64,000 bases of DNA, taken from contig OZ024740.1 in NCBI GenBank assembly GCA_964016885.1, positions 426,126,001-426,190,000 of the forward strand, written 5' to 3'. The stretch is from Eledone cirrhosa (taxonomy: Eukaryota). The notes under the pieces were generated by a model. The model was given only the letters and a program-made list of their open reading frames with translations, ran no database searches and was not told the origin of the DNA. The stretch's first letter is position 1, and each line of letters begins with the position of its first letter. Below, one piece after another: positions 20,433 to 23,788 of this stretch. The position numbers were made by a program, and so were the translations under genes.

Positions 20433-23400
20433 TAAATAAATATAATATCGGAGAAAGCTTTTTAGCGATACTCCGGCCAATTACAACTCACTCAACTAAC
20501 ATTAGGAAATAAGTGATTATATTCTCAATTATGTGTTCGGGGTGCTAACTAAAAGTATTGCGTGGAAAATTGGCTGTATTATTTCAAACGGGACATATCT
20601 AATATATCTCTTCCCAGACGGACGTCTCGTTTCATTAGAGGATTCCTACAATTTGGGTGAAATTATACCAATTTATGTAGGAGCTTTATACCATCAATAG
20701 ATATATATTCAAGTGGGCTCCTATAATTCATCAGTGGGTGCCCCAATAATACTAATATTGATAATCTAACCAACAACACCATTTAGCGATAATCACTTTC
20801 TGTGCCTGAGGTATCTGTCAGGTTGCCAGTCCAGCAGTTCTGAAAGAAGTGCGCGAACTGATTCAAAAAATGAGGAAGTAAATTACCGACATAAAATACA
20901 TTACATGCGCGTGACAATGAACTCTGAAAGGAATTCAGGCCACGTGCTAAGAACTCAATTGGAAATTGAAAAATATCTATGTGTGTACAACATCTGATGA
21001 CACACAGATATTTTCTAGGGCAAAATTACAGAAAGAGATATAAGGAACAATCAATATTCATAAATAAAAAATAAACAAAGAAATGCTAACCTTATACCGG
21101 GAATTTTTTTCAAATCTGCTGCGCCAAGAGTAAGTAAATAAATACAATATCGGAGAAAGCTTTTTAGCGATACTCCGGCCAAATTCCAACTCACTCAACA
21201 AACATTAGGAAATAAGTGATTATATTCCCAATTATGTGTTCGGGGTGCTAACTAAAAGTATTGCGTGGAAAATTGGCTGTATTATTTCAAATGAGACATA
21301 TCTAATATATCTCTTCCCAGACGGACGTCTCGTTTCATTATAGGATTCCTACAATTTGGGTGAAATTATACCAATTTATGTAGGAGCTTGTATACCATCA
21401 ATAGATATATATTCAAGTGGACTCCTATAATTCATCAGTGGTTGCCCCAATAATACTAATATTGATAATCTAATCAACATCAGCATTTAGCGATAATTAC
21501 TTTCTGTGCCTGAGGTGTCTGTCAGGTTGCCAGTCCAGCAGTTCTGAAAGAAGTGCTCGAACTGATTCAAAAAATGAGGAAGTGAATTACCGACAAAAAA
21601 AAAAAATACATGCGCGTGACAATGAACTCTGAAAGGAATTCAGGCCACGTGCTAAGAACTCAATTGGAAATTGAAAAAATATCTATGTGTGTACAACATC
21701 TGATGACACACACAGATATTTTCTCGGGCAAAATAACAGAATGAGATATAAGGAACAATCAATATTCATATATAAAAAATAAACAAAGAAATGCTAACCT
21801 TATACCGGGAATTATTTTCAAATCTGCTGCGCCAAGAGTAAGTAAATAAATACAATATCGGAGAAAGCTTTTTAGCGATACTCCGGCCAAATTCCAACTC
21901 ACTCAACAAACATTAGGAAATAAGTGATTATATTCCCAATTATGTGTTCGGGGTGCTAACTAAAAGTATTGCGTGGAAAATTGGCTATATTATTTCAAAT
22001 GAGACATATCTAATATATCTCTTCCCAGACGGACGTCTCGTTTCATTATAGGATTCCTACAATTTGGGTGAAATTATACCAATTTATGTAGGAGCTTGTA
22101 TACCATCAATAGATATATATTCAAGTGGACTCCTATAATTCATCAGTGGTTGCCCCAATAATACTAATATTGATAATCTAATCAACATCAGCATTTAGCG
22201 ATAATTACTTTCTGTGCCTGAGGTGTCTGTCAGGTTGCCAGTCCAGCAGTTCTGAAAGAAGTGCTCGAACTGATTCAAAAAATGAGGAAGTGAATTATCG
22301 ACAAAAAAAAAAAAATACATGCGCGTGACAATGAACTCTGAAAGGAATTCAGGCCACGTGCTAAGAACTCAATTGGAAATTGAAAAAATATCTATGTGTG
22401 TACAACATCTGATGACACACAGATATTTTCTCGGGCAAAATAACAGAATGAGATATAAGGAACAATCAATATTCATATATAAAAAATAAACAAAGAAATG
22501 CTAACCTTATACCGGGAATTATTTTCAAATCTGCTGCGCCAAGTGTAAGTAAATAAATATAATATCGGAGAAAGCTTTTTAGCGATACTCCGGCCAAATT
22601 CCAACTCACTCAATAAACATTAGGAAATAAGTGATTATATTCCCAATTATGTGTTCGGGGTGCTAACTAAAAGTATTGCGTGGAAAATTGGCTGTATTAT
22701 TTCAAATGAGACATATCTAATATATCTCTTCCCAGACGGACGTCTCGTTTCATTATAGGATTCCTACAATTTGGGTGAAATTATACCAATTTATGTAGGA
22801 GCTTGTATACCATCAATAGATATATATTCAAGTGGGCTCCTATAATTCATCAGTGGGTGCCCCAATGATACTAATATTGATAATCTAACCAACAACACCA
22901 TTTAGCGATAATCACTTTCTGTGCCTGAGGTATCTGCCAGGTTGCCAGTCCAGCAGTTCTGAAAGAAGTGCTCGAACTGATTCAAAAAATGAGGAAGTGA
23001 ATTACCGACACAAAAATACATTACATGCGCGTAACAATGAACTCTGAAAGGAATTCAGGCCATGTGCTAAGAAATCAATTGGAAATTGAAAAAATATCTA
23101 TCTGTGTACAACATCTGATGACACACACAGATATTTTCTCGGACATAATTTACAGAATGAGATATATGGAACAATCAATATTCATAAATAAAAAATAAAC
23201 AAAGAAATGCTAACCTTATACCGGGAATTTTTTTCAAATCTGCTGCGCCAAGAGTAAGTAAATAAATACAATATCGGAGAAAGCTTTTTAGCGATACTCC
23301 GGCCAAATTCCAACTCACTCAACAAACATTAGGAAATTAGTGATTATATTCCCAATTATGTGTTCGGGGTGCTAACTAAAAGTATTGCGTGGAAAATTGG

Positions 23401-23788
23401 CTGTATTATTTCAAATGAGACATATCTAATATATCTCTTCCCAGACGGACGTCTCGTTTCATTATAGGATTCCTACAATTTGGGTGAAATTATACCAATT
23501 TATGTAGGAGCTTGTATACCATCAATAGATATATATTCAAGTGGGTTCCTATAATTCATCAGTGGTTGCCCCAATAATACTAATATTGATAATCTAATCA
23601 ACATCAGCATTTAGTGATAATCACTTTCTGTGCCTGAGGTGACTGTCAGGTTGCCAGTCCAGCAGTTCTGAAAGAAGTGCTCGAACTGATTCAAAAAATG
23701 AGGAAGTGAATTACCGCCAAAAAAAAAAACAATACATGCGCGTGACAATGAACTCTGAAAGGAATTCAGGCCACGTGCTAAGAACTCA
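20433..23788 (-). mobile_element. Tandem array (~4.7 x ~706 bp) of a non-coding HHR-bearing unit; retrozyme-like
   Basis: Periods 702/708/707/709 bp; no meaningful ORF; one HHR per unit; (TA)n on both sides. Confidence 0.85.
22731..22857 (-). ncRNA. Type I HHR with extended helix II (also 20613-20738, 21316-21442, 22024-22150, 23440-23566)
   Basis: CCCA-CTGATGA-ATTATAGGA-[~77 nt]-TCCTATAAT-GAA-ACG AGACGTC CGT-C-TGGG; canonical core and GUC triplet. Confidence 0.88.

Follow-up and report, generated by a model that had tools for sequence, protein, structure and literature searches.

A tandem hammerhead array in Eledone cirrhosa belongs to a young, dispersed, non-coding repeat family with a Penelope-type insertion geometry

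The stretch of DNA analysed here, 64,000 nucleotides of the Eledone cirrhosa genome (contig OZ024740.1, positions 426,126,001 to 426,190,000; hereafter the window), contains an array of head-to-tail, roughly 707-bp units inside a (TA)n tract, each unit carrying a predicted hammerhead ribozyme on the minus strand. This raises the question of whether such an array is a local duplication of DNA or was copied back into the genome from RNA and, if the latter, from what kind of RNA and by which enzyme. We find that the unit belongs to a repeat that is dispersed through the genome, which we refer to as family A, and which is very probably a retrozyme mobilised by Penelope-like elements (PLEs). The array itself is likely to be one long insertion of this non-coding hammerhead repeat, copied into (TA)n by a Penelope-type reverse transcriptase (RT), probably from a circular monomer.

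The array and its ribozymes

The insertion occupies positions 20433..23788, has its RNA sense on the minus strand and, with 4.75 units, is the longest among 40 loci scored. Its fixed end, which corresponds to the RNA 3' end, adjoins the (TA)n target microsatellite at 20338..20432, and its truncated (RNA 5') end is followed by a TA-rich microsatellite at 23789..23878. Anchors at 20448, 21150, 21858, 22565 and 23274 delimit four full units of 702, 708, 707 and 709 bp and a partial unit of 515 bp, which share 95.9–99.4% pairwise identity, very much as the initial annotation had described them (~4.7 copies of a ~706-bp unit within (TA)n). That annotation also took the unit to be non-coding, and the longest stop-free frame in a scanned unit dimer is indeed only 52 codons. 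The organisation is one of pure tandem units, without a layout of the long terminal repeat (LTR) type, the primer-binding site and polypurine tract not having been searched for separately.

Every unit contains, on the minus strand, the hammerhead parts that had been noted (CUGAUGA, helix II, GAAAC, a near-palindromic helix III and a GUC site). The description of the motif as a canonical type I hammerhead did not survive, however. Canonical metazoan type I hammerheads are defined by a helix I of 6 bp and a helix II of 4 bp (PMC4209133), together with loop 1–loop 2 contacts, whereas here helix I is 4 bp family-wide and shortened to 3 bp in the second, third and fifth window copies, and, in place of a loop 1–loop 2 motif, a 9-bp helix II carries a 77-nt branched insert of two hairpins instead of a small cap, which makes a domain of 95 nt. 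This insert on helix II is likely why an Rfam scan recognised no hammerhead, neither at the gathering score nor at E ≤ 10.

The five window copies, all on the minus strand, differ in how far their helices are intact. The first (20613..20743, predicted cut between plus-strand bases 20616/20617) has one mismatch in helix II and a damaged insert hairpin; the second (21316..21447, cut 21319/21320) and third (22024..22155, cut 22027/22028) have the shortened helix I, as has the fifth (23440..23571, cut 23443/23444), in which a candidate pseudoknot is also mismatched. The fourth (22731..22862, cut 22734/22735) is family-typical and the only window copy with every helix intact. Its candidate 4-bp pseudoknot pairs the 5' flank of helix I with the helix II junction; this complementarity is invariant, hence without covariation support, and may represent a stabilising pseudoknot. 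Cutting at the five sites would release four monomers, at 20617..21319 (703 nt), 21320..22027 (708 nt), 22028..22734 (707 nt) and 22735..23443 (709 nt), all on the minus strand, in line with the four ~706-nt products originally proposed. Between the first cut and the fixed end lies a structured 3' tail with covarying helices (20433..20616, minus strand), and the fixed end would mark the point, 182–185 nt past the cut, at which reverse transcription started.

A dispersed family with one fixed end

A search of the 3.0 Gb assembly returned 2281 first-look candidates, of which the 40 loci mentioned above were scored. The best full-length first-look candidates are 95–100% identical to the unit, and the 24 bases next to the cut have at least 394 exact matches, compared with 0 for a reversed-sequence control. 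Family A is therefore a young, dispersed repeat without an open reading frame (ORF), and a search for other arrays, as had been suggested, excludes that the unit occurs at only one locus as an ordinary local duplication. Older A-like subfamilies at 78–90% identity are also present, together with two sister families, both found in flanks and by search. Family B has a unit of 737–738 bp that is 65% identical to A. Family C resembles B but has ~260 bp duplicated within the unit, its units measuring 989–998 bp in seven of the eight loci fetched (L255–L260 and L262, e.g. L256) and 667 bp in the eighth (L261). In the sister families helix III is an 8-nt palindrome, which resembles that of dimer-cleaving hammerheads (PMC4209133), and the base of stem II has a U-U pair, which hammerheads tolerate (PMC3088659, PMC4209133).

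The copies share one insertion geometry. The left end lies at one common phase in 161 of 179 elements, and among these 161 the start falls within a 4-nt window in 127 and adjoins TA-rich DNA, as in the window array, in 136; on the RNA this end is again 182–185 nt downstream of the predicted cut. The opposite (RNA 5') ends are scattered across the unit. To sample lengths without bias, we scored them in 85 elements, taken from the 86 behind the first 100 exact-match places (one ended outside its locus), all of which necessarily reach the cut. In this sample the median length is 523 nt, with 62 elements shorter than one unit, 23 that reach one unit and nine that hold two complete ribozymes. Target-site duplications are unreadable within (TA)n. 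A fixed 3' end past a hammerhead, variable 5' truncation, partial tandems and a microsatellite target together constitute a PLE-type geometry, as expected from the proposal that PLEs mobilise such repeats, and in vitro the PLE known as PAc also starts reverse transcription inside its RNA, at +111–118, downstream of a hammerhead cut at +26 (PMC11167929).

Templates of the arrays

Arrays differ far less within than between loci. Across 76 loci with 161 copies, 22 subfamily sites show 6.8% mismatch inside arrays vs. 37.7% between them. Apart from this shared subfamily type, units diverge independently: rare variants are confined to a single unit in 607 cases and array-wide in 41. In 23 cases a locus-private variant is carried by every unit of its array, where by a rough estimate ~0.3 would be expected. 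These data favour arrays that start as repeats of one template and, short of proof, a circular template. Homogeneity at birth is as rolling-circle copying predicts, and much the same would follow from a homogeneous linear multimer or from repeated template jumps. Scars of A-to-I editing were not found: rare A>G changes number 103 vs. 128 U>C in family A and 47 vs. 43 in family B, and only two of the 41 array-wide variants in family A are A>G. On balance, and with moderate confidence, we consider that a circle was probably the main template for multimers.

The initial annotation had suggested that the window array may itself be a rolling-circle reverse-transcription product. One private variant occurs in all four units that cover its site, as in arrays generally, which are born homogeneous, but units 2, 3 and 5 share further private variants, as do units 1 and 4, so later conversion or duplication shaped the present 4.75 units and the array is not a clean product.

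The alternative that survives best, although we think it rather unlikely, retains the same element and enzyme and supplies them with linear templates, either uncut or partly cut read-through RNA of tandem sources or monomers that were joined or jumped, with circles as by-products. Uncut RNA is the main substrate of PAc (PMC11167929), axolotl has linear multimers and RtcB makes linear dimers (PMC7229834), and the 62 sampled elements below one unit need no circle. Moreover, one of the copies that end exactly at the cut (see below) does so in its second pass, something that an intact circle does not account for, and three more end just past it, L138 and L143 by 1 nt and L116 by 3 nt, each likewise in the second pass. 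A linear source caps the length of its daughters, however, yet several subfamilies each have homogeneous arrays of 2–3.5 units. No long master array was found among the 40 loci scored (assemblies may collapse them), and unit-specific variants in the same order at separate loci, as linear copying would leave, were not seen.

Two loci about 500 kb apart on C3, L067 and L088, have a tract at unit positions 108–221 that is common to one unit of each. This looks like ectopic gene conversion, and the two were rejected as a parent-daughter pair because the tract is conversion-like.

Copy ends at the predicted cut

If the hammerhead cuts the RNA that is copied, some copies should end at the predicted site. 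Among 394 of the at least 394 exact matches next to the cut, the following base is missing in 17, comprising 15 true ends at TA-type flanks, one substitution and one internal deletion. Ends exactly at the cut thus amount to 15 of 394, compared with two of 377 one base past it and one of 365 two bases past it, where the terminal A and the microhomology are the same (p = 5e-4 vs. the cut). The peak stands out from a matched position-class baseline of 18/7097 (p = 2e-11) and from the strongest microhomology class (p = 5e-7), and the flanks of the 15 loci differ. In sister families B and C, whose cut is shifted, 20 of 1664 copies end at their own cut (two of the 20 are possibly one duplicated locus), which is significant against the matched baseline of family A.

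The simplest reading of this pile-up is that the RT reached the 5' end of RNA that had cleaved itself and ran off, and because the copies accumulate at the predicted cut with single-base precision, we strongly infer that the hammerhead cuts in the germ line. The cut was crossed in ~96% of templates, and those templates would have been ligated or uncut. A stall of the RT at the ribozyme structure or at a ligation junction, with no cleavage involved, seems to us an improbable source of the peak: it would account for a small shoulder of ends 1–5 nt past the cut (4 of 85), but the peak is confined to a single base (15, 2 and 1 ends at +0, +1 and +2), its position had been predicted in advance, and the sister families show it again at their own, shifted cut.

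Sequence changes around the site were also recorded. One copy (L137) jumps from the exact cut to unit position 303, with the whole ribozyme domain deleted, and among L139–L149 eight of the 12 loci changed two bases past the cut have the same replacement of the core U16.1 by C, which is either a hot spot or a lineage from a cleavage-dead template.

A candidate enzyme among the Penelope-like elements

PLEs are plentiful in this genome, and Hydra-type PLEs with RT and/or GIY-YIG-type ORFs lie in the flanks of three loci (L264, L265 and L266). All three have a CxCX5C linker, and the one that covers the relevant region has DKT; both are marks of the Hydra clade, which inserts in (TA)n (PMC8557442). 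The 3' untranslated regions (UTRs) of these elements contain hammerheads in which the helix II domain measures 90–91 nt and helix III is a palindrome of 8 nt. The motif lies on the ORF strand in L264 and L266 and is inverted to the ORF in the copy seen in L265. The elements finish in (TA)n with long ends 155–162 nt past the cut. From architecture and target, the PLE protein that moves family A most likely belongs to the Hydra clade, an assignment that we hold with moderate confidence.

Ends of Hydra-type PLEs with 90–116-nt helix II hammerheads were seen in L264:4856 (+), L266:7123 (+), L265, L082 and L045, as inverted pairs with one short end 46–56 nt and one long end 155–199 nt past the cut. 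Neptune was considered as the identity of these long-helix-II PLEs and rejected, since the CxCX5C and DKT motifs mark the Hydra type; Neptune-type elements are also in the genome, a label taken from their CX2-5CxxC-type linker and not from a tree.

The possibility that an unsampled autonomous PLE supplied the units, as its truncated terminal repeats (pLTRs), and that they are no independent non-coding element, was raised at the outset and is now very unlikely. Their end geometry and target are the same as in PLEs, and the flanks abound in truncated PLE ends with hammerheads. Against this, the units join head to tail without an ORF between them, the 76 right flanks that are not TA share no non-unit continuation except the ends of other repeats, and an ORF was reached from 0 of 17 variant loci. 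The families have furthermore reached 35% divergence while non-coding, and both intermediate forms and an internal duplication are present. Autonomous Hydra-clade elements have an ORF with an RT, a C-terminal GIY-YIG and CxCX5C, and among the loci sampled no ORF lies in or contiguous with the unit.

Selection on the RNA fold

In 11 aligned ribozyme-plus-tail segments from the three sister families, which represent only two or three independent lineages, 18 of 80 named pairs have changed on both sides, a count reached in 0 of 500 shuffles and by no slid control (maximum 4), with most of the tested structure derived from the same alignment as the count. The two-sided changes are spread over all three helices, the two hairpins of the insert and the 3' tail. 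The middle region of a seven-row whole-unit alignment has 15 compensatory, 8 one-sided, 5 broken and 36 unchanged pairs, figures that are indicative only, the A/B row grouping being off by one. Folded as circles, RNA strands gave z scores (from 8–25 shuffles) of −8.6 for the third window monomer, −3.5 for the fourth and −6.9 for another, compared with −1.3 to +2.6 for five control stretches on both strands. In 11 monomers AAUAAA occurs three times on the RNA strand vs. 33 times on the opposite strand. Judged from these sequence comparisons, the fold of the hammerhead and unit is under selection at the RNA level. Transcription by RNA polymerase (Pol) III appears unlikely, because the RNA strand has U-runs of 6–11, and no promoter was identified in the unit, where one was looked for by inspection only.

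An ordinary satellite amplified as DNA, with a ribozyme-like motif by chance, would fit the local conversion or duplication in the window array but is scarcely credible and largely refuted, given the compensatory changes, the star-like divergence of units within arrays and the dispersal of copies with one fixed and one truncated end into microsatellites.

Other features of the window and flanks

Related fragments of Hydra-type PLE ORFs, with a CNC-x5-C-like linker, lie at 18728–19645 (+), 34688–36493 (−) and 58014–59432 (+) of the window, the first followed by a degenerate short hammerhead-like motif near 19944. A second PLE family, with a Neptune-like linker, is present at 24670–26441 (−) and 5979–6567 (+) and is abundant in the fetched flanks. 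A motif scan gave further short hammerhead-like motifs at 38081 (−) and 51307 (−). A tRNA-like match at 30089–30152 (−; Rfam 30.9 bits), similar to sequence that recurs in flanks, is probably a tRNA-derived short interspersed nuclear element. A 160-codon frame at 17444–17926 (−) resembles the end of the reverse transcriptase of a long interspersed nuclear element, presumably RTE-like, and has no Pfam match; Pfam recognised one of five window ORFs, weakly. Long strand-skewed minisatellites occupy 1–2551, 7592–11560, 45724–47790 and 61481–63322, with periods of 36/77, 40, 40 and 73. Elsewhere, the family-A array of L068 is flanked on both sides by an inverted pair of another hammerhead-bearing repeat.

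Discussion

The scheme that we propose starts from what is observed, hundreds of dispersed ORF-less copies with one end fixed, the other variable and units in tandem. Copies that span ~1.4 units or more (nine of the 85 sampled) would be transcribed, likely by Pol II read-through, and the hammerhead in the minus-strand RNA would, on strong grounds, cut in the germ line. By analogy to published retrozymes, a host ligase would then join the cut monomers into ~707-nt circles. A PLE protein would nick (TA)n and start cDNA internally, 182–185 nt 3' of the cut, and the RT would either stop at the cut on cleaved RNA or cross the junction on ligated or uncut RNA, so that copies would range in length from 0.25 to more than 4 units. 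The last step, observed at the window locus, is later conversion or duplication between the units.

Several observations weigh against this scheme, beside the second-pass end at the cut and the preference of PAc for uncut RNA in vitro. A parent-to-daughter pair that would prove the circle was not found among 180 elements, and ectopic conversion, as between L067 and L088, could homogenise arrays. The peak in families B and C is weaker (1.2%), is without a baseline of its own and reaches p = 0.05 vs. the strongest microhomology class. In the available part of the PAc study no reads ended at the cut (PMC11167929), and eight of nine predicted Xenopus retrozymes were without cleavage in vitro (bioRxiv 10.64898/2026.07.22.740005). 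The hammerhead fold here lies 6–8 kcal/mol above the local minimum-energy fold. Family A is single-armed, with one inverted pair among the 180 elements and one end phase, whereas the Hydra-type elements are two-armed (inverted), with short (46–56 nt) and long (155–162 nt) ends; an inverted second arm and short or long tail ends are optional in PLEs (PMC8557442). Finally, the three Hydra 3' UTRs have no significant similarity to the A or B units, with only weak matches (E ≥ 0.002), the single strong match to such a UTR being an adjacent family-A insertion, and no autonomous partner was found in the genome as sampled.

How does family A compare with known systems? With non-LTR retrozymes (PMC7229834, PMC7761336, bioRxiv 10.64898/2026.07.22.740005) it shares non-coding units in head-to-tail order that each hold one type I hammerhead, GC content <50%, a strongly self-paired predicted circle and co-occurrence with PLEs, and it fits them on every sequence-level feature examined (tandem units, lack of coding, dispersal, self-paired fold). 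The unit had been called large for its class, and at 707 nt (738 and 989–998 nt in the sisters) it is large compared with the 170–400 nt of experimentally studied retrozymes (PMC7229834), but not against a computational range of 51–972 bp, which includes 707 bp and which the ~995-bp sister slightly exceeds (bioRxiv 10.64898/2026.07.22.740005). Non-LTR retrozymes use a loop 1–loop 2 motif, whereas family A combines a short helix I with a branched 95-nt helix II domain, and dispersed copies that mostly fall short of one unit, share a fixed end and show an excess of ends at the cut are not described for retrozymes in the sources consulted. The same preprint argues for a PLE origin from co-occurrence and pLTR similarity, and one of its nine elements cleaved (bioRxiv 10.64898/2026.07.22.740005).

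Like Hydra-clade PLEs (PMC8557442), family A has a (TA)n target, a hammerhead near the 3' end and 5' truncation, and the local Hydra-type elements resemble it further in their long helix II domain (90–91 nt), palindromic helix III and long end 155–162 nt past the cut. Unlike them, family A has no ORF, no detectable homology to the sampled UTRs, a single arm and one end phase, and its helix II forms a three-way junction, whereas the long stem of Hydra-type PLEs is mostly unbranched. The hammerheads known from PLEs combine a palindromic helix III with a short helix I and a long helix II (PMC3088659, PMC4209133). The Poseidon element PAc of Anolis is alike in its internal RT start past the hammerhead cut, adjacent sites and AT-rich DNA, and unlike in that it is autonomous, starts ~85–92 nt past the cut and, in the part of the study available, has no read ends there (PMC11167929). 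Pseudoknots of at least 4 bp between stem I and stem II are common in hammerheads and stabilise many of them (PMC3088659), whereas the candidate here pairs with the junction of the three-way insert, 9 bp from the core.

In the portions of the literature available, neither family A nor a clustering of copy ends at the cut was found to be described; the supplements (file S2 of PMC8557442 and the preprint tables) may hold long-helix-II motifs or large units, and the accessible text of PMC13282606 mentions neither hammerhead nor retrozyme. What is new here is that a real, young retrozyme family combines large units and a branched ribozyme with single-armed insertions into (TA)n and a footprint of the cut that is one base wide. 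A more far-reaching reading, which we put forward only tentatively, is that the family gives rise to host-encoded circular RNAs of 0.7–1 kb, among the largest of animal retrozymes, with a new hammerhead architecture (a three-way-junction helix II pseudoknotted to helix I), which parasitise Hydra-clade Penelope elements and whose thousands of genomic copies record, to the base, RT start, germ-line cutting and rolling-circle copying.

Reverse transcription of retrozyme circles by PLEs has been proposed, not demonstrated, and the in vivo activity of PLE-type hammerheads has been called unclear (PMC7229834, PMC7761336, PMC8557442, PMC11167929). If family A is a circular-RNA lineage that parasitises Hydra PLEs, it would answer both whether PLE-type hammerheads cut in vivo and what moves animal retrozymes, and since its substrate, start site, target and cut site are all defined and a candidate enzyme clade is at hand, both questions are directly testable at the bench. 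Its branched helix II would explain why Rfam misses such motifs and may provide a natural scaffold for circularising RNAs of 0.7–1 kb, whilst the peak of copy ends at the cut suggests a way of reading ribozyme activity from the genome alone.

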